Positions 1,413-13,072 of a DNA stretch of 13,072 nt are shown one piece after another. Source of the DNA: a virus (lineage: Duplodnaviria > Heunggongvirae > Uroviricota > Caudoviricetes); IMG/VR virus record IMGVR_UViG_2671180405_000011; one strand, given 5' to 3'. The notes beneath the pieces are model-generated. The model was not told the DNA's origin. It was given only the letters and a program-made list of their open reading frames with translations, and ran no database searches. Position 1 is the stretch's first letter. The number at the start of each line of letters is the position of its first letter. A program made the position numbers and the translations under genes.

Positions 1413-2441
1413 TTAAATACTCGCCACATTATACCAAGTGCCATTTATATACTTTTGCACTGGCCTGTAATGAACGCCTGCAATATTATCGGCAGAGTTT
1501 TTTCCGGTATCCTGTACGTTAATCCCCGTCAGTACATAGCCTGACGGGCACTGAAAATTCCATGTTTGCCAGTTGTTCACTCCATAATATTGCTGTGAAC
1601 CAAGTCGAACATCTTTCACATATCTGGAATCAAAATTGCCATAGTTGCCGGGAATAACTTGCGAGCCGCAAAGCCAGTTCCCGTTATTATCCATGTACGC
1701 CTGACCATCGGTGCCATTGGCTGTCCTTGAGTTATTAATCATGTAGATGCCAAATTGCTTATTTCCCAGACCGCCAATCATAAATTTGCGGTCGGCATGG
1801 TCCTGACGGAGCAAAGCCTGAGCACCATCAGTGGATACCGCATTACGTCCCAAAATAACATTCTGGTCACGCATATGAATCCACATGCCGGTACTACTGT
1901 TAATTGCAAAACGGTTTGCAAATATATCCCCTGTAACATCAAGACCATGCCCCATGCTTATCCGGCCAGTTCTGAGATTAAGCGTAAAGGGGCGTAGTGG
2001 CCCTATATTACCATTTTCCCCTTCATTCTCTCGTGTAGGGATGATATGCAGGCATTCTTCAGAACGACGAAAAATGGCACCAAAAGATGAATTAAATATC
2101 CTCAGTGCATTGACTGTCGATATTTTCACTTCACTGCTGAAAAGGGCTTCAACAAGAACAGACAAAGCATTCCATTTAAGATTCATCAGGTCTTTAGGCC
2201 GGGTGCCAATGATGCGGTGTCTCCATTTGAAATATTCATTGCCGTTGTTGCCTGTTTCAAACCACATGTAGGAATCGGTGTCTGCATCCGAATTATTTTT
2301 AAACCCAATCTTTGCCCAGTCAGTATTTCGAATCCAGGCAAGGATTGAGTCGTTTTCAAAAGTAAGTCCACCGGACAACGTATCGCCATTTTTTTGCACG
2401 GCGTTACCAGCCTTGTTTACCGTTTCCTGTAAACCGAGGTT
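1413..2441 (-). CDS. Alternative tail fibre C-terminal segment (Sv'-like), start-less cassette expressed only after inversion
   Basis: Minus-strand frame is open from 2441 with no proper ATG (listed start is GTG). It ends ...[12 protein letters not shown], paralogous to the plus-strand fibre C-terminus, and the frame opens just inside the crossover site. Confidence 0.75.
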
Positions 2442-2449
2442 TTAGATAA
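2424..2449. other. Serine-invertase crossover site (gix/hix/pix-like), right end of invertible segment
   Basis: ttcctgtaaaccgaggttttagataa: a 26-bp imperfect palindrome with 12-bp half sites around a central GA, closely matching recalled gix/hix sites. It lies about 55 bp upstream of the invertase start. Confidence 0.7.
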
Positions 2450-2503
2450 TGGCCGTTTCCGGCCTGCATGGCATGATTTGCGCTTTTGGACGGGAGATTC
2501 AGC

Positions 2504-2760
2504 GTGCTGATTGGCTATGTAAGGGTATCAACAAATGACCAGAATACAGACCTGCAACGAAACGCTCTTGTTTGTGCAGGATATGAACAAATATTTGAAG
2601 ATAAATTAAGCGGAACAAGGACAGGCCGACCTGGATTAAAACGTGCTTTAAAGCGCCTTCAAAAAGGTGACGCACTGGTTGTCTGAAAACTGGACTGACT
2701 GGGTCACTGTATGCGGCATCTTGTCGTGCTGGTGGTGGAAGCCTAGAAAAAGTATCGGGT
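2504..2760 (+). pseudogene. DNA invertase remnant (Gin/Pin/Hin/Cin family), inactivated
   Basis: GTG 2504 with SD gggaga, then MLIGYVRVSTNDQNTDLQRNAL... identical to the intact copy for about 80 bp. Scattered substitutions follow, TGG becomes TGA at 2684-2686 (W to stop), then further in-frame stops and weak residual similarity (LD*LGHCMRHLVVLV vs LDRLGRSMKHLISLV) to about 2760. Confidence 0.7.
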
Positions 2761-2844
2761 GTTGCTGAACCGTGTTGATACATCAACTGCACCTGATATT
2801 GAGTGGCCTACGAACCCTGTCAGGGAGTAATCATTGGGATTATG

Positions 2845-2877
2845 CCGCAGCACGTCTTAAGCAAGAACGTGCTGCGG
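2845..2877. other. Perfect 10-bp stem hairpin (ccgcagcacg / cgtgctgcgg, 13-nt loop), possible terminator
   Basis: Lies 8 nt beyond the methyltransferase stop (minus strand) and is followed on the plus strand by a T6 run at 2888-2893. There is no immediately adjacent U-tract on either strand, so terminator function is uncertain. Confidence 0.3.
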
Positions 2878-2884
2878 TTGGATG

Positions 2885-3532
2885 CTATTTTTTCCCTGAA
2901 GCGGAAAACATTACTACAGTACCTTGAACCCTGGTTTTAACATTCTCGAAATGCTCTGAGAGTATATGTGTTAAGCCTTCTTCGGAATCTTTTGTGTTTG
3001 AAAAGATGCCTTTCTGATTGTAAATGCGCATCAGTTTTTGACCGAAGCTATTGTGCACAACTCCATCGCCAAGAATTGTGGCTCCGTATAGAGTTCCATC
3101 GTCAGTTAAGGCCTGCGCCGCATTGCGTATTACACAGCTTTTTGTAGATATATTTCCAGGCAGGCAGTGAAGAAGGTAAAACATGGAAATGGAATCAAAT
3201 TGACCATGTAACGCCGCGGGATAAGGTTCAAAAACATCATGGCTAATTTTATGTTTAATTTTTGATTCCCCAGCCCTTGTAGATGCCGCGTTCAGGCTAG
3301 CTTCGTTCAAATCCATTAAAGATATCAGACTACTCTCAGGTACGTGAGTAAGGTAAAACCCAGTTCCAACACCAATATCCAGATGGTTGTTACCTAAATG
3401 TTCCAGAAAGTGTGGAAGAAGGTGTTCCTTTGTAGGACATCCCCATGCAAGCCGATTTGATACTCCCAAAACCCACCAGTCATAAAGCTTTAGGGTAAGT
3501 GGTGTGTAAATTTTAGCCCCATCATCTGTGTT
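2885..3532 (-). pseudogene. Class I SAM-dependent methyltransferase, 5'-truncated (small-molecule/RNA type, not an obvious DNA methyltransferase)
   Basis: Minus-strand frame is open from the repeat junction at 3532 to TAG at 2885-2887. It carries the Rossmann motif I LDIGVGTGFY and a post-I acidic/hydrophobic segment. There is no ATG with an RBS; the listed start is an internal TTG and the frame runs into the repeat, so the N-terminus is missing. The region is visibly AT-richer than its flanks. Confidence 0.6.
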
Positions 3533-3768
3533 TAGTGATAAAGCGAACTTATACCGGGGAAGAGCAGAGGCAACAAGCGGAAAATGAAAAGCAAAGCCTG
3601 CTACAGCTCGTCAGGGATAAAACCCAGCTATGGGACTCACAGCTACGGCTGGGCATTATTTCCGACGAGAATAAACAAAAATTAACCGAGTGGATGCTCT
3701 ATGCGCAGAAGGTCGAATCCACAGACACCTCCAGCCTGCCAGTAACGTTTCCCGAACAACCAGAATGA
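3533..3768 (+). pseudogene. Tail fibre assembly chaperone, C-terminal fragment (copy 2; lacks first ~100 codons)
   Basis: Identical to 619-855 of the intact chaperone gene. Identity begins abruptly at 3533; upstream sequence is methyltransferase, not chaperone. Confidence 0.7.
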
Positions 3769-3771
3769 AAC

Positions 3772-3799
3772 AAGGCCCGATATCGGGCCTTAATTTTTA
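3772..3799. terminator. Copy 2 of the palindromic hairpin with T-tract
   Basis: Same sequence as 859-886, offset 2913. Confidence 0.45.
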
Positions 3800-4324
3800 C
3801 TCAGGCTTTTGTGGCCATTCTGGCTTTGCCGTATCCACACGGCTGACCAGAACACTGTAGCGTTCCCATGCTTCCAGTCGTGTGCGTTCCTCGTCCGTCG
3901 CCATATTCAGCCTGACAGCGCGTTCCAGCGGCTGGATGACTGATTCAGCTTCGGAAAGCAATGCGGCCTTTTGTGATTCGGCCTGTTGTTGCTGTTCGTC
4001 AGCCGTATAAATCCGTTTAACCACAGCTCCGTCCTTAAACATCCACTTACCGGAATCATCAGCACGACGATTAGCTGTAATATCAGGAACCTCAACGACG
4101 CTATAACCTTCAGGGTTAAGCGTGGAGGCATCTTTGGTGATGGCGACAATAATATTATTTGCATCGTAAACAATCTTTATTGTGTCTGGCTGAAAGTTCT
4201 TCACTTCCTCATACCAGTTTTTTCCGTCCTCAGAGTAAAGCCAGATGACTCCGTGCTTCTTTGTTAACTCATACTGCTCCACTGTTTTAGCATTACCTGC
4301 TTTTATGTTCTTTAAGTGCATCAT
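3797..4324 (-). CDS. Alternative tail fibre assembly chaperone (U'-like), copy 2
   Basis: Translation identical to 884-1411. Confidence 0.75.
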
Positions 4325-4325
4325 A

Positions 4326-5354
4326 TTAAATACTCGCCACATTATACCAAGTGCCATTTATATACTTTTGCACTGGCCTGTAATGAACGCCTGCAATATT
4401 ATCGGCAGAGTTTTTTCCGGTATCCTGTACGTTAATCCCCGTCAGTACATAGCCTGACGGGCACTGAAAATTCCATGTTTGCCAGTTGTTCACTCCATAA
4501 TATTGCTGTGAACCAAGTCGAACATCTTTCACATATCTGGAATCAAAATTGCCATAGTTGCCGGGAATAACTTGCGAGCCGCAAAGCCAGTTCCCGTTAT
4601 TATCCATGTACGCCTGACCATCGGTGCCATTGGCTGTCCTTGAGTTATTAATCATGTAGATGCCAAATTGCTTATTTCCCAGACCGCCAATCATAAATTT
4701 GCGGTCGGCATGGTCCTGACGGAGCAAAGCCTGAGCACCATCAGTGGATACCGCATTACGTCCCAAAATAACATTCTGGTCACGCATATGAATCCACATG
4801 CCGGTACTACTGTTAATTGCAAAACGGTTTGCAAATATATCCCCTGTAACATCAAGACCATGCCCCATGCTTATCCGGCCAGTTCTGAGATTAAGCGTAA
4901 AGGGGCGTAGTGGCCCTATATTACCATTTTCCCCTTCATTCTCTCGTGTAGGGATGATATGCAGGCATTCTTCAGAACGACGAAAAATGGCACCAAAAGA
5001 TGAATTAAATATCCTCAGTGCATTGACTGTCGATATTTTCACTTCACTGCTGAAAAGGGCTTCAACAAGAACAGACAAAGCATTCCATTTAAGATTCATC
5101 AGGTCTTTAGGCCGGGTGCCAATGATGCGGTGTCTCCATTTGAAATATTCATTGCCGTTGTTGCCTGTTTCAAACCACATGTAGGAATCGGTGTCTGCAT
5201 CCGAATTATTTTTAAACCCAATCTTTGCCCAGTCAGTATTTCGAATCCAGGCAAGGATTGAGTCGTTTTCAAAAGTAAGTCCACCGGACAACGTATCGCC
5301 ATTTTTTTGCACGGCGTTACCAGCCTTGTTTACCGTTTCCTGTAAACCGAGGTT
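4326..5354 (-). CDS. Alternative tail fibre C-terminal segment (Sv'-like), copy 2
   Basis: Translation identical to 1413-2441. Confidence 0.7.
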
Positions 5355-5362
5355 TTAGATAA
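5337..5362. other. Serine-invertase crossover site (gix/hix/pix-like), copy 2
   Basis: ttcctgtaaaccgaggttttagataa, identical to 2424-2449 and in the same (direct) orientation. Confidence 0.7.
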
Positions 5363-5416
5363 TGGCCGTTTCCGGCCTGCATGGCATGATTTGCGCTTTT
5401 GGACGGGAGATTCAGC

Positions 5417-6004
5417 GTGCTGATTGGCTATGTAAGGGTATCAACAAATGACCAGAATACAGACCTGCAACGAAACGCTCTTGTTTGTGCAGGATGTGAA
5501 CAAATATTTGAAGATAAATTAAGCGGGACAAAGACAGACCGACCGGGATTAAAACGCGCTTTAAAGCGCCTTCAAAAAGGTGACACGCTGGTTGTCTGGA
5601 AACTGGATCGCCTCGGGCGAAGCATGAAACATCTGATTTCTCTCGTCGGGGAACTACGGGAGCGAGGAATTAATTTTCGCAGTCTGACCGACAGCATAGA
5701 TACATCTTCTCCAATGGGGCGTTTTTTCTTCCACGTGATGGGTGCCCTGGCTGAAATGGAACGTGAATTAATTGTTGAACGTACACTGGCCGGACTGGCG
5801 GCAGCACGCGCACGGGGGCGCACAGGCGGACGTCGACCGAAGCTGACAAAAGAACAGCATGAGCAAATAGCAAGGCTGATCAAAAACGGGCACGACAGAA
5901 AACAACTGGCAATAATTTACGGCATTGGTATATCGACGATTTATCGTTACCACCCCGCAGGAGAATCAATCGGAACAATAGAGAAGAGTCAGGAAACAAA
6001 ATAA
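5417..6004 (+). CDS. Site-specific DNA invertase, small serine recombinase of the Gin/Pin/Hin/Cin family (intact)
   Basis: GTG 5417 preceded by SD gggaga. N-terminus MLIGYVRVSTNDQNTDLQ carries the catalytic Ser; VVWKLDRLGRS, SPMGRFFFHVMGALAEMERELIVERT and a C-terminal helix-turn-helix (GGRRPKLT...) follow. It sits immediately downstream of a gix-like site, as Mu gin and e14 pin do. Confidence 0.9.
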   Translation: MLIGYVRVSTNDQNTDLQRNALVCAGCEQIFEDKLSGTKTDRPGLKRALKRLQKGDTLVVWKLDRLGRSMKHLISLVGELRERGINFRSLTDSIDTSSPMGRFFFHVMGALAEMERELIVERTLAGLAAARARGRTGGRRPKLTKEQHEQIARLIKNGHDRKQLAIIYGIGISTIYRYHPAGESIGTIEKSQETK

Positions 6005-6036
6005 CCGCTAATCTGACCATTAGCGGTTTTTGTGTT
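6003..6036. terminator. Bidirectional rho-independent terminator between convergent invertase and gpU genes
   Basis: Stem aaccgctaat / attagcggtt with loop ctgacc, followed by ttttgtgtt on the plus strand and by TTATTTT on the minus strand. Confidence 0.6.
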
Positions 6037-6039
6037 AAA

Positions 6040-6528
6040 TCAGAACAACCCTTTAACTGAACTGGCCGCGCTGTTAAGGGATGATGTTACCTTATCTTTG
6101 AAGCCGGACAGCATATCGCTGAACGATGAGGATTGCAGGCGCTCCCGCAAATCCTCATCACAGCGTTCAAGAGTCAGTGAAAATTCTATCTTTTTCGCCT
6201 TACCGTAGCGATCAAACTCGGAGCGGGTCGTATTCGTTTCGGTCAGGACATACATGCCGTAAATCTGCCCGACGCCATCAATCAGAGGCCAGGGTCGTCC
6301 TGTATACGCCTGCGTGGTCAGCAGCGACAGCGACACTTCGCCACCTGTAATTTCAGGATAAAGCACACCAGAAAGAACGATGCGCTCATCACCTGCACCG
6401 ATATACTGCCAGCTTGCCGAACGGTTAACGCGTTCATTTTTCACATGCCGCCAGCTTTTGTTTTGCTGTAACTGCTGATGCGGCAATGTACGCAGCTCAA
6501 AAACAAACATGCCGTAGATCATCATCAT
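6040..6528 (-). CDS. U: Phage tail protein gpU (P2 U family)
   Basis: Matches recalled P2 gpU: short N-terminal Met run, then GxFVF...SWRH...RVNRS...GVLYPEITGG...LIDG. The listed ORF starts at 6534, but SD GAGGAG spacing favours the third ATG at 6528. It follows T on the same strand. Confidence 0.85.
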   Translation of the reverse strand: MMMIYGMFVFELRTLPHQQLQQNKSWRHVKNERVNRSASWQYIGAGDERIVLSGVLYPEITGGEVSLSLLTTQAYTGRPWPLIDGVGQIYGMYVLTETNTTRSEFDRYGKAKKIEFSLTLERCDEDLRERLQSSSFSDMLSGFKDKVTSSLNSAASSVKGLF

Positions 6529-6540
6529 GGCCATGACTCC

Positions 6541-9357
6541 TCAATCTTTATCGTAAAAACTGCCACGCCCGGCACGGGCGCGCCGTTCCATTTCTGCCCT
6601 GACCATTTCACCGACCAGTTTCGCCAGTTCGCGGGGATTCTGCGTAACAACGTTATGCAGATGAACATGAATTTCACCACCAAATCCGGAGGCAACAGGC
6701 TCCCGGTTACGGGAAGTTACAGGAACTGATGCCACTGGAGAGCGTATGGCCTCCGCCACCGGGCGGGAGCTGGCCGCAACAACAGGGACCAGCGCCGGAG
6801 GCAGCGGAGCCGGGACCACGGGTGTGATATTAATTGCGGGGGCAGGCTTACTGACCTGCGCAATCTTCCGCTCCTGCCACTCCCCACGAACAGCAAGTGC
6901 GCGGGGCAGGTTCTTAAAGACAATATCGCCGGGGCCAATGCGTTTTTTCGTCTCATCAACCAGCTTACCTGTGTTATCAGCAATTTTGCTGAGTCTGCGT
7001 AGCGTCCCGGTATTGCTGTCTGTGAGCGGTTTGTTGTCTTTGGGTTTATCACCTCCGGTGCCATTGCCATTTTCCACAGGCTTCGGCGGATTGATTTTCG
7101 CCAGGTCCCCCTGAAGCAAGGCAACCTTGTCCTGAAGAATGGCCGCACGCTGTGCGTCTTCGATTTTCTTGCGCGCCCTTTCCGCTTCATCCGGAAGGAC
7201 GCCAAGTTTTTCAAGTATCCACGCCAGCGTATCCAGTAGCATTTTTGCAGGTGTCAGAACAAGTTGTAACGCACCGCCAAGAACGTTACCGAATATCTCG
7301 CCAGCACTGGCACATTTATCCAGCGTTTCCTTGCTGGACTCCATCGGTGACAGCAGCGATTTAAACCAGTTAAAGACCTGAATAATCCCATCGCGCACGA
7401 CATCAAAAACAGGGCCAAACCGTTCAAAGGTTTCGCGCAACGGGGTCAGCCTTTCCATAATCCCGCTGAACACCCCGGCAAAAAATGCCCTGATGGGATC
7501 CCAGTATTTCCAGATAAGAACGGCAGCTCCGGCAAGCGCAGCCACGATAAGACTAACCGGACTGAACAGCGCCCCGATAGCGCCACCAAGTAAAGAAACG
7601 GAACCCGTCACCATTCCCCATAATGCAGGCAGAACCCTGACAACATTCATTGATTCGGTCAGGAGAGAAAAACCGAGACGCAACGTAGCCAGCTTCCCGT
7701 GAAGCACCCCAATAACCAGAGACAACGAACCAACCGTTGCTGTTGTCGCCAGCAGTGCGCCTCCCGCTATCAGTAACTGGCGCGTCAGTGCCGGGTGGGC
7801 CTGCGCCAGCGCCGTCACCTTTGAGACAACCCGCGTGAGCCACTGCGTGACAGAACGCAGCGGACCGTCAACCAGATCACTGATGCGAATACGCAGACCT
7901 TCCCATGCACTGCCGAGTGATTTCAGGTTGCCATCAAGGTTATTGGCCATAACCTTTGCCGTGCGTTCTGCCTCACCGCGCGCGCCTTCAAGTTCTTTTC
8001 TCAGTTTGGCTAAGAAGCCGTCACCTGCCGCATCAACGAGGCCCATAAATGATGTGAAAGCCTCTTCTCCGGCAATGTCCTTAAAGAACGATACCCGGTC
8101 AACCTCCCCGTATTTGCGGGTGGCTTTATAGAGATCGGCCAGCACATTCTCCATCGGGCGCATTTTGCCTTTGGCGTCAGCAACTGACACCCCCAGCTCT
8201 TTCAGTGCTTCTGCCGCTGCCTTTGGCGGTGATGACAGATTGGCCAGGCTTTTACGCAACGCTGTACCTGCATCACTCCCCCTGATACCCATCTTCGCCA
8301 GCACGCCCGCCATCGCTGCGGCCTGCTCCAGCGATATTCCCAGCTTACCCGCCACCGGACCTGCATATTTCATGGTTTCGCCCAGTGCGCGAAGGTCAGT
8401 GTTGGTACGGGTAAACGCTGCGGTAAGTGTGTCACCGACCCGGTCCATCTGGTCAGCAGAGAGGCCGAACTGCGTCAGGATATTGGAACCAATATCCGCC
8501 GTCTCGCCGAGGTCCATACCGCCAGCCGTTGCCATGCTCAGCACGCCGGGAAGCGCAGCCTGAATGGCCTGCGGTGTGAAACCAGCCATTGCAAGAAATG
8601 CCTGTCCACTGGCGGCATCGCCTGCGGTGAACTGCGTTTCAGAGCCAAGTTTTAACGCCTGCTCACGCAGCGCCTTAAACTGCGGGCTGTTTTTATCGAT
8701 TCGCGTCAGTGCCTGAACACGGGACATCTCTTTCCCGAACCCGATAGCGGGCTGCAAAAAACGCCCGGCAGCATAGCCGCCCGCTGCCGCCGCACCTGTT
8801 GCCAGCGCACCACCTGTTTTCAGTTTTCCCGCTGTTTCCTGCGCGCGTGAATACCGCTCACGCGCCTGCGTTACACGCGCAAGCGCCCGCCGTTCGCGTT
8901 CAAGCTGGTTGTTGTATTGTCCGGTGCGTCTGATGGCCTGCTGGATGGTGTTATCGCTGCCTGTCAGGGAAATGCCGTGGCGTTTCAGCTCTCCGCCAAG
9001 TTCCCGCATTTTCTGAATTTCCCGTGTGCGCGATTCATTCAGGCGTTCAAGCCGGGTGCTTAACTGCTGCATCAGCTTTTGTTGTTTTTCGCTGAGCACT
9101 GTACCCGTGCGTTGTAACTGATTAAGGGCGTTAAGCTGGCGTCGTGCTTTCACGATGCCCGCATCCGCTTTACTGACAGCGTCACGGGCGCGCTCAAATG
9201 AACGCGCCTGACGCTCGAGATTTTTGATCGCCCCCTGCGTTCGCTGGATGGAGTCACCAAACTGCCCCATCAGGCGGCGGGCGTTTTCGGCAGGCCGGGT
9301 CAGCCTGTCAACGGCGCTGAAAGCGACCCGGATATCAAGAGTCTTCATTGTCTGCAT
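6541..9357 (-). CDS. T: Tail tape measure protein (P2 gpT-like)
   Basis: About 940-aa ORF rich in Ala/Gly/Leu with coiled-coil N-terminal third and hydrophobic central segments. It sits between E/E' and U as in P2. The start is ambiguous (GTG 9384, ATG 9357 or ATG 9348). Confidence 0.85.
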   Translation of the reverse strand: MQTMKTLDIRVAFSAVDRLTRPAENARRLMGQFGDSIQRTQGAIKNLERQARSFERARDAVSKADAGIVKARRQLNALNQLQRTGTVLSEKQQKLMQQLSTRLERLNESRTREIQKMRELGGELKRHGISLTGSDNTIQQAIRRTGQYNNQLERERRALARVTQARERYSRAQETAGKLKTGGALATGAAAAGGYAAGRFLQPAIGFGKEMSRVQALTRIDKNSPQFKALREQALKLGSETQFTAGDAASGQAFLAMAGFTPQAIQAALPGVLSMATAGGMDLGETADIGSNILTQFGLSADQMDRVGDTLTAAFTRTNTDLRALGETMKYAGPVAGKLGISLEQAAAMAGVLAKMGIRGSDAGTALRKSLANLSSPPKAAAEALKELGVSVADAKGKMRPMENVLADLYKATRKYGEVDRVSFFKDIAGEEAFTSFMGLVDAAGDGFLAKLRKELEGARGEAERTAKVMANNLDGNLKSLGSAWEGLRIRISDLVDGPLRSVTQWLTRVVSKVTALAQAHPALTRQLLIAGGALLATTATVGSLSLVIGVLHGKLATLRLGFSLLTESMNVVRVLPALWGMVTGSVSLLGGAIGALFSPVSLIVAALAGAAVLIWKYWDPIRAFFAGVFSGIMERLTPLRETFERFGPVFDVVRDGIIQVFNWFKSLLSPMESSKETLDKCASAGEIFGNVLGGALQLVLTPAKMLLDTLAWILEKLGVLPDEAERARKKIEDAQRAAILQDKVALLQGDLAKINPPKPVENGNGTGGDKPKDNKPLTDSNTGTLRRLSKIADNTGKLVDETKKRIGPGDIVFKNLPRALAVRGEWQERKIAQVSKPAPAINITPVVPAPLPPALVPVVAASSRPVAEAIRSPVASVPVTSRNREPVASGFGGEIHVHLHNVVTQNPRELAKLVGEMVRAEMERRARAGRGSFYDKD

Positions 9358-9864
9358 TCCCGCTGCGAAGTGCCGCCCGCTCACGCCAGCTAACCACTTC
9401 GCCGGGCGTCATCATGAAGATTTCGGCGGGCGACCAGTTAAAAATGGCGGCAATATCCGCCACAAAGTCTTCTATGTGCTCAAAGCACACAACCGTGATC
9501 AGGCTTCCGTCGCCTGTTCGTTCTTCTCGCCAGAGTCCGCACCGCTCAAAAAATTTACGGCAACCACACATAACTGAATAAAGTCACGGGATGCCATTTT
9601 TTTGATCGTCACTTCATCCAGTCGCGGTGATGTCACGCGTGACAGCAGCGTAAACATGGATTCCGCTTTCAAATTCAGCACATCAGACAGCGACAAATCT
9701 CGCAGAGATCCAGCCTGCTCAATAGCCCCGGTGATCTCCACATACGTGATTTTTTCGCCGCCTCGCTCAATTGGTTGGGTAAGTTTTACGCCACGCTCAC
9801 TGGTTTCTTTCACAGTGTCAGCAACGACCGTGTTTTCGGTATCGATGTTTTTCGTCTCTTTCAT
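9335..9864 (-). CDS. E+E': gpE+E' fusion chaperone made by programmed -1 ribosomal frameshift
   Basis: Slippery heptamer T TTT TTG on the minus strand (plus coordinates 9547-9553) in the E frame (AAT TTT TTG). The -1 frame then stays open for about 70 codons (ERCGLWREERTGDG...NADNEDS*) to 9335, overlapping the start of T, as with P2 E/E' and lambda G/GT. Confidence 0.7.
9499..9864 (-). CDS. E: Tail assembly chaperone gpE (zero-frame product)
   Basis: ATG 9864 with strong SD AAAGGAG at 7-nt spacing; 121 aa ending ...ASRDFIQLCVVAVNFLSGADSGEKNEQATEA, between tube and tape measure genes. Confidence 0.8.
   Translation of the reverse strand: MKETKNIDTENTVVADTVKETSERGVKLTQPIERGGEKITYVEITGAIEQAGSLRDLSLSDVLNLKAESMFTLLSRVTSPRLDEVTIKKMASRDFIQLCVVAVNFLSGADSGEKNEQATEA
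9547..9553 (-). promoter_or_regulatory. Programmed -1 frameshift slippery site (T TTT TTG)
   Basis: Plus strand reads caaaaaa; its reverse complement TTTTTTG is in X XXY YYZ register in the E frame. Confidence 0.65.
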
Positions 9865-9918
9865 CAGGAAACTCCTTTCAGTCAGAGGCGACGCACTGCG
9901 CCGCCTGCATATTACTTA

Positions 9919-10431
9919 TCAGCCAAGCCCGAGCGCGGAACGGATGCGATCGGGCACAATGTCCCTGCCGTCCTTCCGGTAAATGAAGTTCAGCAGGTCA
10001 ATCTCCCACAACGGGCGATCGTTAACACTCAGCTTGTAGTAGGTGTTTTTAATGGCGTAAGTGTGTGATGTGGCTTCGCCCTGTTTGGCTTCCCCCATAT
10101 CAATTTCCGTCACACGTCCGCGCATTTCGACTTCATACAGGTCGCTTTCAGCGTCGGTGTAGTATTCACCCGCAAAACGCAGCAGCGTACCGTCAATCGT
10201 GCCGCCATACTTAAGGAACAGCTCACGAACTGCGCCCCCCATGACAAAGCTCGCATCAAGCGCGGAGTCATCCAGGCCGAGATCAATACTTACCGCTCCC
10301 ATCATGCCACCACCCCGGTAGCTGTCGGTTTTGCGCGTCAGCTTAGGCAGAGTGACGGACGTCACCTTACCCACTTCGTTTTCACCATCCACAAACAGCG
10401 TAAAAAAGCGAAGATGTTTTGGTACAGCCAT
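9919..10431 (-). CDS. FII: Tail tube protein (P2 FII family)
   Basis: 170 aa with VTLPKLTRK...YRGGGM...IDLGLDD...GTIDG..LRFAG...VEMRGR, matching recalled P2 FII. Its start ATG overlaps the FI stop (TGATG), and SD GGGAGG lies upstream. Confidence 0.9.
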   Translation of the reverse strand: MAVPKHLRFFTLFVDGENEVGKVTSVTLPKLTRKTDSYRGGGMMGAVSIDLGLDDSALDASFVMGGAVRELFLKYGGTIDGTLLRFAGEYYTDAESDLYEVEMRGRVTEIDMGEAKQGEATSHTYAIKNTYYKLSVNDRPLWEIDLLNFIYRKDGRDIVPDRIRSALGLG

Positions 10432-11615
10432 CAGGCACCTCCCAGCACCGCAAATGCGGGACCAAAGAATTCATCAGTAAACGACTGGTAAAGCTCCATG
10501 TCTTCCAGCGGGGGAACAGGCGTATATTTGTAGCGAATACGCACGCGCCCCTGACGTAAATTCGTGGTGCCGTTATCCACCACGTCATACCAGCACGACG
10601 CCCCAATCAGTTTCCCGGCAGTAACCAGTGAATCCAGTTTTGCCCTGATGGCACCGATAACATCCTTCACGTTCGCAGGCGTCAGTGGACTGTCGATGGT
10701 TTCAAACTGCGCTTCCGCAATTGAATCAGCCAGCACCTGTGCGGTTCGGGTATACACCTCAAAGATGTAGGCGTTCGTTTCCGGTGTGCGGTTGCCCCAG
10801 AAGCGGAACCCGTTGCGACGAATAATGGTCGTGATTTCTTTGTTGTTGAGGCTGTTGGCATCACTGTCTTCGGCCTGCAACGACCAGAACACATGCCTGG
10901 ACATCCCCAGCACATTTTTAACCGGAACGTTGGACAGCGATTTGTGCCAGCCCTGCTCATGGTCAATGTACGCACGAAGGCCGCACGCATAGGCAGGCGC
11001 GGGGAACGTTTCGTTTTTGCCACTTTTCGGGTTGTAGGCGATGAAGTCCGGCCATAAGAGCATCACCTCACGTTCGTTGAATTTCTGGCGGTAGGTAATT
11101 GCCTCAGCCATCGTGTTACAGTCATGACATGAGGCATACACAAACGCGCGCAGTTTACCCGCAATCACGCACAGGGATTTTGTCACCGCCTCCGTGTCCA
11201 GCTCCGGCGCGGCCAGAATACGCGGACGGTATCCGATGCTTTCATCCTGCTCTGCAACAAGCAGCGCATACATCCCCGTATAGCTGCCGTCAGATTCAGA
11301 ACCACCGATAACCAGTTGATCCTGCGTTTTTCCGTCTTCTTCTTTGTGTTCAGCCACGCGAACGACGATCACCTTTGTGCTCACCTGGTCTGCGATGGCC
11401 TTAAGCGCACGATAAAGCGTCCCCGTTGTTCCGCATTTTCCCAGCACGTCATTGACGCGGGGCAGCAGTGTGGGCTTGTTCAGCGGGAACAGCTCCGCGT
11501 CCGCATCATCCGCCGTTGCCACGATACCGATAACGCTGGAATCAACATCGTTAATCGCTGTTACCAGGTCGGTATTTTCCGTAACACGGGCACCATGAAA
11601 ACGAGTTTCACTCAT
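10431..11615 (-). CDS. FI: Contractile tail sheath protein (P2 FI family)
   Basis: 394 aa with ...DADAE.FPLNKP...KLRAF.Y...WPDF...GLRA.IDHEQGWHK.LSNV...IRR.GFRFWGNRT...NYTRTAQV.AD...YDYTPVPPLE, matching recalled P2 FI. SD AAGGGG upstream of ATG 11615. Confidence 0.9.
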   Translation of the reverse strand: MSETRFHGARVTENTDLVTAINDVDSSVIGIVATADDADAELFPLNKPTLLPRVNDVLGKCGTTGTLYRALKAIADQVSTKVIVVRVAEHKEEDGKTQDQLVIGGSESDGSYTGMYALLVAEQDESIGYRPRILAAPELDTEAVTKSLCVIAGKLRAFVYASCHDCNTMAEAITYRQKFNEREVMLLWPDFIAYNPKSGKNETFPAPAYACGLRAYIDHEQGWHKSLSNVPVKNVLGMSRHVFWSLQAEDSDANSLNNKEITTIIRRNGFRFWGNRTPETNAYIFEVYTRTAQVLADSIAEAQFETIDSPLTPANVKDVIGAIRAKLDSLVTAGKLIGASCWYDVVDNGTTNLRQGRVRIRYKYTPVPPLEDMELYQSFTDEFFGPAFAVLGGA

Positions 11616-11772
11616 AGCTTCAACCCCTTGTATCCGTTAAATGATTCGGCAACAATCATCACCCACCACGCGCGTAATCTCACCCCTGCGCCATTCTCCC
11701 GCCACGGCGACAACAAAAAGCAGTAACCCCCTCCGCACGCACATGCGACCATGCCACACAGGGAGGGAGCAG

Positions 11773-12882
11773 ATGACCGACACCACCATGCAATTGCTCA
11801 GTCAGGGCACAGACCCCGTGAAAATGCCGGATTTTGATATTCTCGCGGAGGGTAAAACGCTGTCAGGCGTGGCAGAGCGCCTGATGAGCCTGTCACTGAC
11901 CGACAACCGGGGATTTGAGGCGGACCAGCTCACCATCACGCTGGATGATGCGGATGGTCAGTTGCAGCTACCGCCACGGGGCGCGCGCCTGACGGTTCTC
12001 ATTGGCTGGAAGGGAGAACCGCTGACAGAAAAAGGCACTTACATTGTTGATGAAATCGCTCACGAAGGACCGCCGGACAGGCTGACTGTTTCAGCCAGAA
12101 GCGCAGATTTTCGGGCTGAATTTAACGTTAAACGTGAGGTGTCCTGGCATGATGTGACCGTTGAGCGTGTGGTATCCGCCATCGCTCATCGGTATGGTCT
12201 GAAACCGCAAATCAGCGAAATGCTGATGGATATCGAAATCGACCACGCCGACCAGACCGAAGAAAGCGACATGTCCTTCCTTACGCGCATGGCGGAAATG
12301 CTGGGCGCAATCACCACGGTAAAAAGCGGTAATCTGTTATTCATCATGCCCGGTGGTGGCGTGAACGCACAGGGCCAGCCGTTGCCCTCGTTCGCCATCA
12401 CACGCAGCAGCGGCGATCGCCATCAGTTCCGCATTGCTGACCGCGAAGCGTATACGGGGGTACGCGCTTACTGGCTTGATCTTAATTACGGGAAAAAGAA
12501 AAAAGTCAGCGTGAAACGCCGCAAACCGTCAAAACCAAAAAAGGAGAAAAGCAGCAGCCGGGAAGGCGACTATATGGAAGGTGCGGAAGGCAACGTGTTT
12601 GTGTTACGCAAAACTTATCAGAACGAGCAGGCAGCAAGACGTGCAGCGGCGGCAAAGTGGCAGCAGCTACAACGCGGAGCCGCATCATTCTCCATCACAC
12701 TGGCGCATGGACGTGCAGAACTCTACCCCGAAATGCATGGCACGGTAACAGGATTTAAAAGCGAGATTGATAATCAGGACTGGATTATTGCAAAAGCCGA
12801 GCACACCATTGATAACAGCGGCTTTACCACGCAGCTTGAGCTTGAGGCAAAAATCCCGGAATGGATAGCAGAAACAGAGTGA
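11773..12882 (+). CDS. D: Phage tail protein gpD (P2 late control gene D family)
   Basis: ATG 11773 preceded by SD gggagggag. The 369-aa product has a Lys-rich low-complexity stretch and a C-terminus ...DNSGFTTQLELEAKI, consistent with recalled gpD. The longer listed ORF from 11641 has no RBS and a low-complexity N-terminus. Confidence 0.8.
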   Translation: MTDTTMQLLSQGTDPVKMPDFDILAEGKTLSGVAERLMSLSLTDNRGFEADQLTITLDDADGQLQLPPRGARLTVLIGWKGEPLTEKGTYIVDEIAHEGPPDRLTVSARSADFRAEFNVKREVSWHDVTVERVVSAIAHRYGLKPQISEMLMDIEIDHADQTEESDMSFLTRMAEMLGAITTVKSGNLLFIMPGGGVNAQGQPLPSFAITRSSGDRHQFRIADREAYTGVRAYWLDLNYGKKKKVSVKRRKPSKPKKEKSSSREGDYMEGAEGNVFVLRKTYQNEQAARRAAAAKWQQLQRGAASFSITLAHGRAELYPEMHGTVTGFKSEIDNQDWIIAKAEHTIDNSGFTTQLELEAKIPEWIAETE

Positions 12883-13072
12883 GCAACTTAAATGTATTAA
12901 CTCAGAACGGATCAACACACTCACAACATAGAGTCAATATAGCTGCTCGCTTTGTTCCAGCAAGGATGCCTATTTCTAAGGAAAAACAGAGCAGAAACAT
13001 ATGGTGTTTTCCTACCTGACATCAGGGGTGGTAGACTGGCCCCCTGAATCTCCAGACAACCAGTATCACTTA

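Follow-up and report, generated by a model that had tools for sequence, protein, structure and literature searches.

Among the closest described counterparts of the locus reported here is the G segment of phage Mu, which comprises the invertase Gin, the crossover sites gixL and gixR, the sis enhancer and the alternative gene pairs S-U and S'-U'. The enhancer in such systems consists of two Fis sites ~48 bp apart that natively lie ~100 bp from one crossover site, in the 5' end of the invertase gene (PMC3798978). With wild-type Fis/enhancer-dependent invertases, inversion is the exclusive outcome (PMC3798978, PMC4817059), and deletion is efficient with Fis-independent mutants only (PMC4817059). 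Min of plasmid p15B combines a serine invertase with six crossover sites and favors inversion over deletion when sites are of mixed orientation (PMC11850598, citing Sandmeier et al. 1992); shufflons differ in using a tyrosine recombinase. P88-like prophages (P88, 520873, S. sonnei 53G) carry H, U, (U', Sv') and the invertase, with gpU-T-E-FII-FI on the other strand and then D. The right-end module of lambdoid prophages, at trp/ompW and other sites, holds an stf invertible segment, a truncated pin-like invertase, a 45-aa ORF and a class I SAM methyltransferase.

The stretch analyzed here, referred to as the window, is 13,072 nucleotides of viral DNA. Going by its sequence, this is a Gin-type switch of host range in a P88-like (Xuanwuvirus) prophage, one of the Shigella sonnei / E. 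coli type. The order of tail and fibre genes and the nucleotide identity are both those of Xuanwuvirus: positions 50-2582 and 3533-13033 are 100% identical to a single-copy prophage at ihfA/pheT (L005, L008 and S. sonnei 53G), Shigella-type prophages are 100% identical across 9.5 kb, and phages 520873, P88, P884B11 and PhiR44_2 show 93-96% identity to the window. The P88-like gene order is retained, with gpU, T, E/E', FII and FI at 6040-11615 (-) and gpD at 11773-12882 (+). Tail genes on the opposite strand are the usual Xuanwuvirus arrangement. The switch itself begins with the 3' end of the Sv sequence, which encodes the variable C terminus of the tail-fibre protein H, in orientation A (50-320, +; assigned from the H of relatives), followed by its tail-fibre assembly protein U (322-855, +; 177 aa, Caudo_TAP). 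On the other strand are a first U' (884-1411, -; 175 aa, Caudo_TAP) and a first Sv' (1413-2437, -), which is a silent alternative fibre C-terminus. This Sv' has an open frame starting at the gix core, closed off by a TAA in the outer half-site, and all of its 328 residues agree with the C-terminal part of H678, the 678-aa fibre protein of relatives with a flipped segment.

An intact Gin-family DNA invertase of 195 aa is encoded at 5417-6004 (+). It is a serine recombinase of the invertase subclass with Pfam Resolvase (1.3e-50) and HTH_7 (1.6e-13) domains and the VRVSTNDQ motif, matches the Gin structures 4m6f and 3uj3 in the PDB at E ~1e-101, and shares 86% identity with Mu Gin. Fis-independent mutants are altered at H106 and M114, both of which are wild type here. 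As in Mu, the constant part of the fibre is joined across the site to either variable part, each with its own assembly protein, and the first ~200 nt of the invertase gene, enhancer included, are almost identical to Mu in DNA. Putative Fis-dependent recombinational enhancers lie at 2525-2588 (copy 1) and 5438-5501 (copy 2), each with two Fis-like 15-mers (centered at 2532/2581 and 5445/5494) spaced 49 bp from each other and ~95 bp from the centre of gix. Compared with Mu gin, the DNA of copy 2 is an exact match and that of copy 1 agrees at all positions but 2583.

The original prediction was that the window holds two copies of a gix-like 26-bp site in the same orientation, and an exact-match scan of the whole window agrees with it: TTCCTGTAAACCGAGGTTTTAGATAA occurs at 2424-2449 and 5337-5362, each on the + strand. 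Allowing up to 3 mismatches, no further match to TTCCTGTAAACCGAGGTTTTAGATAA was found in the window on either strand, and a looser scan for gix/cix-type half-sites with up to 6 mismatches returned nothing in the window beyond the same two sites. None of 200 dinucleotide-preserving shuffles had two matches. The site consists of 12-bp imperfect inverted half-sites, the inner TTCCTGTAAACC and the outer GGTTTTAGATAA, around a 2-bp GA core, and 25 of its 26 bases are identical to those of Mu gixL/gixR, which sit at the annotated G-segment boundaries. With this identity and an intact Gin-like invertase adjoining, the gix-like nature of the sites holds, and we assign both as genuine Mu-type (gix-family) inversion sites. 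Unlike Mu, which has one invertase-proximal site, the P2-like myovirus examined here (Xuanwuvirus) has two in direct orientation.

The two sites are not independent. A self-comparison at an offset of 2913 revealed a direct repeat in which 620-2582 (copy 1, R1, +) and 3533-5495 (copy 2, R2, +) are 100% identical over 1,963 bp, and R1 is also 100% identical to the single-copy prophage of relatives. Beyond the perfect repeat, ~90% identity continues as far as ~2700/5613. R2 contains the last 77 codons of U (3533-3768, +), a second U' (3797-4324, -) and a second Sv' (4326-5350, -). The two gix sites are probably identical because a 2.9-kb piece of the tail-fibre switch is duplicated. The prediction of two direct sites was correct, but it missed that they are a by-product of this 2-kb perfect duplication. 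Every relative fetched carries a single cassette set and a single gix beside the invertase, with neither the methyltransferase fragment nor the 2.9-kb repeat. The duplicated arrangement did not turn up in 5,426 complete E. coli genomes or in any complete relative fetched.

The spacer between the copies (2583-3532) holds the remainder of a truncated invertase together with a 45-aa ORF and a methyltransferase that lacks its 5' end. The truncated invertase (2504-2686, +; 60 aa) ends at a TGA nonsense codon (2684-2686), its homology ends near 2700, and from 2583 it is the allele of a lambdoid remnant. It is followed by a 3' fragment of the remnant's tail-fibre-assembly (Tfa) gene (2733-2879, +) and the 45-aa ORF of the lambdoid right-end module (2803-2940, +). 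The class I SAM methyltransferase (2885-3532, -) has no start codon, is cut 20 nt inside the gene and would natively start at an ATG at 3553 or 3542. The invertase remnant (2504-2686), methyltransferase fragment (2885-3469/3532) and second cassette copy (3533-5312) named earlier are thus all present. In Shigella-type contigs (L013), the right end of a remnant lambdoid prophage is 100% identical to positions 2482-3512, and positions 2450-3533 are 99.3-99.4% identical to ~410 E. coli genomes, ST131 among them; methyltransferase modules of the 45-aa-ORF/lambdoid right-end type are very common. The spacer is, by its sequence, a piece of a second, lambdoid prophage and not of the P88-like one, and in contrast with the complete lambdoid module it is a 950-bp piece alone, embedded in a P88-like prophage. 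The remnant's own segment flips in strains in which only a truncated invertase adjoins it, so gix and the remnant's enhancer remain usable in trans.

Both joints of the spacer were located. At the left, a 101-bp block (2482-2582, +) is common to both parental types and contains the point at which copy 1 changes from P88-like to lambdoid-type sequence. All 19 lambdoid-type loci have T at 2460, and 18 of the 19 have G2454 and T2481; copy 1 has the P88-type C, C and C at 2454, 2460 and 2481 and then lambdoid-type bases from 2583, which places the crossover 45-146 bp outside the gix core. Since it lies inside the shared block and that far past the core, the left joint appears homologous rather than site-specific. 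At the right, the methyltransferase is joined to position 620 of U at 3532|3533 with 1 nt (T) in common with either parent, as expected of an illegitimate joint with 1-nt microhomology, and a de Bruijn assembler cannot produce such a joint by mis-threading. As contiguous sequence, this joint is absent from the 5,426 complete E. coli genomes, GTDB representatives, IMG/VR and JGI metagenomes. A homologous joint, an illegitimate joint and a spacer traced to a second locus together suggest a segmental duplication of the kind that has a templated second-locus insert between its copies; for the class as a whole, template switching or unequal exchange with remodelling is considered, and here the mechanism is read from sequence alone, with no duplication intermediate seen.

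We therefore consider it probable, though by no means assured, that a Gin/gix switch gained a 2,913-bp unit by recombination between two prophages that have gix/invertase-5' homology in common, with gix, enhancer and invertase presumably functional and collapse through RecA expected. The added unit would comprise a second U-3'/U'/Sv'/gix with the first ~80-180 bp of invertase-proximal sequence (R) and 950 bp from the right end of the lambdoid remnant (C), namely the truncated invertase, Tfa fragment, 45-aa ORF and methyltransferase. The first joint would come from a homologous crossover in the identical 101-bp block and the second from an illegitimate event at 3532|3533, either by a template switch to the remnant and then back or by a large unequal-exchange duplication trimmed afterwards by deletion. 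The second gix would then be a passenger of the duplication.

The ends of the window bear on how far this arrangement can be trusted. An IS600 terminus (1-52, ending ...CCAGTACACCTCA; IS600 matches in >3,000 E. coli genomes) bounds the left and the left end of IS2 (13031-13072) the right, so the window is probably a whole short-read contig. Where such a contig holds an exact 1,963-bp repeat, one graph node has been traversed twice, and on this depend both the 100% identity between the copies and the path taken through the 101-bp block. It is accordingly possible, at odds we put well below even, that the joint at 3532|3533 is real and the sequence to the left of the shared block was wrongly threaded. 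Ahead of the truncated invertase and methyltransferase fragment would then stand the invertible segment and gix of the lambdoid prophage itself, and the P88-type A-R stretch (50-2481) would come from a second, normal switch. Such a genome would still have two direct gix sites at a spacing of 2.9 kb, the left one lambdoid, and would lack the tandem 1,963-bp repeat. The IS ends are those of a short-read contig, and the 101-bp block, the same in both parents, is too long for short reads or k-mers to bridge. Contigs L012-L016, in which the lambdoid remnant is joined to its own cassettes and not to P88-type ones, show lambdoid cassettes, gix, G/T/T, truncated invertase and methyltransferase fragment, and end at 3512/3528, 4-20 nt before 3532; however, these ends may mark the start of identity with a second methyltransferase module. 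In scaffold L050, lambdoid-type cassettes are placed beside IS600. Mis-threading nevertheless requires two P88-like right arms (at least 9.5 kb) or an inter-prophage deletion of ~390 kb, a spacing taken from one complete genome (CP029794.1), and at a shared block with three in-edges and three out-edges an assembler normally breaks the contig instead of traversing R twice. In favor of the tandem form, three other assemblies have contigs that begin exactly at position 620, and one of these is 1,821 bp long (620-2440) and ends at the last base common to the alternative outer half-sites. A single further assembly, L050, shares the IS600|Sv junction, and its sequence breaks 76 nt into R. What other assemblies contribute in support is confined to such contig ends, and one of them, L017, breaks at 620 and not at gix, a pattern not predicted by two copies of R.

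On the reading of a tandem duplication, which we prefer, the behavior of the switch depends on its left side. Single-copy relatives were found with both orientations of the segment, encoding an H of 656 aa with Sv' silent or an H of 678 aa with Sv silent, and in the flipped ones Sc::Sv' is in frame and identical to the Sv' of the window, in agreement with the earlier interpretation. The Sv frame of the window is open to the left edge yet runs into IS600, which interrupts it at nt 50-52, 90 codons ahead of the Sv stop, and the C-terminus of the relatives' 656-aa protein (H656) matches the window only from SEFYTTT... onward. The identical junction is found in L050. Because IS600 breaks Sv, the standard orientation would give no working fibre. 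A partner site in the tail-fibre gene is present in single-copy relatives, as in L019, where an inverted gix lies at 9028-9053 in gene H and projects ~650 bp past the window edge with IS600 left out. In the window's own genome the left site may, but need not, lie upstream as was claimed: IS600 cuts the frame at the end of the contig, no inverted partner gix was found in the window even at the loose threshold, and L050 places lambdoid-type sequence and cassettes left of IS600, though across a gap. A third, inverted site is suggested by the relatives and by scaffold L050 only. In contrast with Mu, one variable part is broken and no left site is seen in the window.

If the inverted left site survives beyond IS600, nested inversions are plausible. 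Each gix site would retain its adjoining Fis enhancer and be served by one wild-type-like intact invertase, and three sites would give four isomers. Three of these would place the constant fibre part before an identical Sv' copy, and the isomer in the window would place it before the IS600-broken Sv. Since the two Sv' copies do not differ, the earlier reasoning that either inversion fuses Sc to the same Sv' was sound. Inversion isomers of the duplicated form were not observed. Excision by resolution between the direct sites, which had also been proposed, is unlikely: wild-type invertases only invert (PMC3798978, PMC4817059), H106 and M114 are unmutated, and no resolution of the direct pair by the invertase would be expected. 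RecA recombination across the 1,963-bp perfect repeat is the likelier and more realistic route of deletion, and it would collapse the locus to a normal single-copy switch. The same assembly graph (A to R, R to C, C to R, R to D) would also fit a single-copy chromosomal switch (A-R-D) with a separate 2.9-kb circle (R-C), but such a circle carries no replication function, would itself need the tandem form as its source, and wild-type invertases do not excise between direct sites (PMC3798978); we regard it as the most improbable account of all.

Like Min, the locus would have more than two crossover sites per invertase in a tail-fibre cluster, with two direct ones seen and an inverted third presumed. 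Min shuffles different cassettes into many fibre variants, whereas the extra cassette here (U', Sv') is 100% identical, so no different cassettes lie between the sites. It is in our judgment doubtful that the duplication has made a functioning nested-inversion system, with three sites and four isomers, out of a Gin-type switch with two sites, which would be a snapshot of a Min-like origin. Far less credible still is a selected three-site mini-shufflon kept for extra regulatory or host-range states. An enhancer-like element is present at both right sites, the invertase is intact, four isomers are formally possible, and multi-site invertase systems are on record (Min of p15B, cited in PMC11850598). 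Against this, the identical cassette yields no new fibre variant, the spacer consists of gene fragments (the nonsense-truncated invertase and the start-less methyltransferase), the arrangement is missing from the 5,426 complete E. coli genomes and the complete relatives fetched, and Sv is disrupted. In addition, perfect 2-kb direct repeats are unstable in recA+ hosts.

Taken all together, the locus looks like an ordinary rearrangement rather than a new switching system, and it reveals no new mechanism. In practical terms, identical "regulatory sites" in a contig may just flag a large repeat, and repeat-bearing invertible regions in IS-rich Shigella genomes are the least trustworthy parts of short-read contigs. 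If a three-site system did exist, one invertase would flip a short or a long segment, the long one carrying the lambdoid fragment and a second enhancer, and multi-site systems like Min of p15B could arise through recombination of co-resident prophages in the invertase-5'/enhancer region. If the tandem form is real, co-resident prophages have exchanged DNA via the conserved gix / invertase-5' / enhancer region, which would be an example of tail-fibre cassettes and morons moving among phage types, and a switch with an extra crossover site would be a plausible early step to multi-site inversion systems.

The 26-bp invertase crossover site (gix) TTCCTGTAAACCGAGGTTTTAGATAA is present on the + strand at 2424-2449 and again at 5337-5362, as the original prediction of two same-orientation sites had stated, but the two sites are not independent. 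When the window was compared with itself at an offset of 2913, 620-2582 and 3533-5495 were identical over 1,963 bp with 0 mismatches. Beyond this repeat the similarity continued for about 120 bp at about 90% identity and then stopped. Because the gix pair lies inside one 2-kb repeat, the finding is a direct repeat containing a gix site rather than two gix sites. No third copy of the 26-mer was detected on either strand of the window at up to 3 mismatches (0 expected by chance), and a more permissive scan, which used half-sites of known gix/cix type and tolerated as many as 6 mismatches overall, returned these two sites only. The gixL and gixR sites of Mu, which coincide exactly with the annotated boundaries of its G segment, match the window site at 25 of 26 bases.

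The window begins with the end of IS600 (1-52) and the 3' end of the variable part of the tail fibre, Sv (to 320, +), which IS600 interrupts 90 codons before its stop. These are followed by the assembly protein gene U (322-855, +) and by the alternative assembly and variable parts, U' (884-1411, -) and Sv' (1413-2399, -). On the other side of the first gix lie an invertase remnant of 60 codons, stopped by a TGA nonsense codon (2504-2686, +), and a methyltransferase fragment (2885-3469, -). The second copy comprises the final 77 codons of U (3533-3768, +), U' (3797-4324, -), Sv' (4326-5312, -) and gix, and leads into an intact invertase of 195 aa (5417-6004, +), which has Resolvase and HTH_7 domains, is 86% identical to Mu Gin and matches the Gin crystal structures with an E of about 1e-101. 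The P2-like tail genes gpU, T, E, FII and FI (6040-11615, -) and gpD (11773-12882, +) occupy most of the remainder, and the left end of IS2 (13031-13072) lies at the very end of the window. The gpD reading frame has a 44-codon in-frame extension upstream (11641-11772), and relatives are annotated from the internal ATG (369 aa). The backbone is that of a P88-like phage, genus Xuanwuvirus. We rejected the minus-strand FI-U block as the trace of a large invertase-mediated inversion, since P88-like phages normally have this order.

An identical tape-measure protein is present in hundreds of assemblies, including HE616528, which we take to be S. sonnei 53G, and both 3533-13033 and 50-2582 of the window are 100% identical to the P88-like prophages of such assemblies. 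Every relative fetched carries one cassette set, and the segment was seen in both orientations among them. Some encode a tail-fibre protein H of 656 aa (constant part Sc plus Sv) with a silent Sv' of 328 aa, and others an H of 678 aa (Sc plus Sv') with a silent Sv of 247 aa. At its C-terminus, the 678-aa H is identical to the window Sv' at 328/328 residues, the fusion being in frame across the gix-encoded LGLQETVN. In these relatives gene H contains the inverted left site, TTCCTGTAAACCGAGGTATTCGATAA, some 950 bp upstream of where U starts. Given both orientations and the in-frame fusion, this prophage lineage has a tail-fibre switch that is real and active. Three complete Shigella-type genomes, L020 (CP026836.1, 9028-9053), L023 (CP180280.1) and L026 (CP029794.1), carry IS600 within the invertase-proximal gix (TTCCTGTAAACCGAGGTT and, across the breakpoint, TGAGGTGT...), and there the switch should be locked. 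The neighbour of the same P88-like prophage also varies, being serS in two loci (L024, L028) and ihfA/pheT in three (L005-L007), which points to two attachment sites or a chromosomal rearrangement.

The sequence between the repeats has a different source. About 410 complete E. coli genomes share a module to which window 2450-3533 is 99.3-99.4% identical; the module sits at the right end of a lambdoid prophage adjoining trp/ompW and is extremely common. Besides stf, which has an invertible segment of its own, it contains gix, the 60-aa invertase remnant also present in the window, a Tfa fragment, a 45-aa ORF and a complete methyltransferase (222 aa, class I SAM). Its Shigella-type copies (L013, L041, L042 and L049) have the sequence found in the window, and L013, compared base by base, is identical to it across 2482-3512. 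A Tfa 3' fragment behind the invertase remnant (2733-2879) is 89% identical to the Tfa fragment that normal lambdoid loci have after the methyltransferase (10333-10480 of L002, from JJ1887), so the methyltransferase moron is bracketed by direct repeats of a Tfa fragment. Between closely related strains the lambdoid segment lies in opposite orientations, in E. coli M45 (L001) and JJ1887 (5894-9000) and likewise in L012 and L013-L016. As only the 60-aa stub is adjacent, the segment must be flipped in trans by the invertase of another prophage.

To the right of the first gix, three positions distinguish the two parents. Lambdoid-type loci have T at 2460 (19/19), G at 2454 and T at 2481 (18/19 for both), while P88-like Shigella-type prophages have C at 2454, 2460 and 2481 in all cases. 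Copy 1 of the window has C, C, C, with lambdoid-type bases from 2583 on, and the switch therefore falls within 2482-2582, a 101-bp block in which the parents do not differ. Since the gix core (2436-2437) is 45-146 bp away, the crossover was homologous. A site-specific origin at the core was rejected, since on its right-hand side copy 1 retains P88-type bases (2454, 2460 and 2481).

At the right joint, between 3532 and 3533, the lambdoid sequence ...CATCTGTGTTT meets U at position 620 (AGTGATAAAGCG...) with a single T in common, and the methyltransferase start codon (an ATG that would be at 3553 or 3542) is lost. A homologous joint via the Tfa fragment normally found after the methyltransferase was rejected; this fragment has no detectable DNA similarity to the 3' end of U, and with 1 nt of microhomology the joint is illegitimate. 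Compared with a normal prophage, the net change is +2,913 bp, made up of a copy of the repeat and 950 bp from the lambdoid remnant. In one complete genome with both prophages, about 390 kb separates them, and their orientation is direct. The joint from P88-like to lambdoid sequence would be of duplication type and the return joint of deletion type. Judged from the joint types, two routes would fit: a replication or repair template switch to the lambdoid remnant and back, or an unequal exchange giving a large duplication that was afterwards trimmed by deletion.

Neither a megablast search with 3380-3700 in 5,426 complete E. coli genomes nor 42-mer scans for exact matches in GTDB representatives, IMG/VR and JGI metagenomes found the joint between 3532 and 3533, and a scan of IMG/VR for the IS600-Sv junction gave no other contiguous copy. 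Since no ORF crosses the joint, it is not searchable via protein. Exact look-ups of the truncated methyltransferase, U fragment, U, 45-aa ORF, 60-aa invertase remnant and 75-aa junction ORF did not find it contiguously, returning just one gapped scaffold and short contigs whose ends lie at the breakpoints or close to them.

The 13,072-bp sequence, with IS termini at both ends, has the look of an entire short-read contig. There, an exact repeat of 1,963 bp can appear only when assembly passes twice through a single graph node, which makes the 100% identity between copies automatic. Threading across the shared 101-bp block may be wrong, in which case the contig would be mis-threaded to its left and the genome would have no tandem repeat; a direct gix pair at 2.9-kb spacing would persist, the left site then belonging to the lambdoid segment. 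The joint between 3532 and 3533 is not a graph artefact, since no k-mer is common to both of its sides. Position 620 is the exact start of three contigs from other assemblies, and one of them (1,821 bp, 620-2440) stops at the final base that the outer half-sites on the invertase side and the Sc side have in common; these contig ends give indirect support to 620 as a real fork. L017 breaks at 620 and not at gix, which the two-copy form does not predict. Mis-threading is favoured by L012-L016, in which the remnant is joined to lambdoid cassettes. We downgraded these contigs as proof of the joint because they end at 3512/3528 and not at 3532, which could be where another copy of the methyltransferase module, a very common one, begins. 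The same IS600-Sv junction occurs in only one other assembly, GCA_001255415.1 (scaffold L050). Its contig break 76 nt into the repeat is further indirect support for the fork at 620. Across a gap, it puts lambdoid cassettes beside IS600, again in favour of mis-threading. The block concerned (L050 3481-4893) is 100% identical to lambdoid-type stf/gix/Sv/U cassettes (L012 4201-2789) and sits between the P88-type H 5' end and IS600 in this gapped scaffold; either the scaffolding is in error there or the segments of both prophages are really fused.

Over their first approximately 200 nt, the two copies of the invertase gene differ very little from Mu gin DNA. Each contains a pair of Fis-like 15-mers (2525-2588 and 5438-5501), spaced by 49 bp and some 95 bp away from the centre of gix. 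The described enhancer is 65 bp long with Fis sites at each end, natively about 100 bp from a site (PMC3798978), and the Fis-like pairs and their spacing match it, making them predicted enhancers. The remnant allele differs at one enhancer position, 2583. Even so, the lambdoid segment beside the same remnant was found flipped, so that segment works with invertase supplied in trans. If gixL still lies beyond IS600, one inverted and two direct sites would permit four isomers; Sc would precede identical Sv' in three of the four and the IS600-broken Sv in the isomer of the window. The original prediction also allowed excision between the direct sites. The exclusive outcome of wild-type Fis/enhancer-dependent invertases is intramolecular inversion (PMC3798978), and it is Fis-independent mutants, Hin-H107Y for example, that delete efficiently between direct sites (PMC4817059). 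As H106 and M114 of the window invertase are wild type, excision by this enzyme is unlikely. RecA recombination over 1,963 identical bp would restore the normal single-copy switch, and we infer that the duplicated locus would collapse in this way.

The system works like the Gin/Cin/Pin/Hin family and, on the tested features, belongs to it. With Min of p15B, as cited in PMC11850598, it would share the possession of more than two sites and nothing else, and the added cassette diversity that defines Min was not found here. None of the 5,426 complete E. coli genomes, and none of the complete relatives fetched, contains the duplicated arrangement, which is rare and undescribed. The best reading is that of an accidental rearrangement, probably unstable, in a Shigella-type genome rich in IS copies, with assembly as a possible complication. 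That it is a working three-site nested switch showing the origin of multi-site systems seems improbable.
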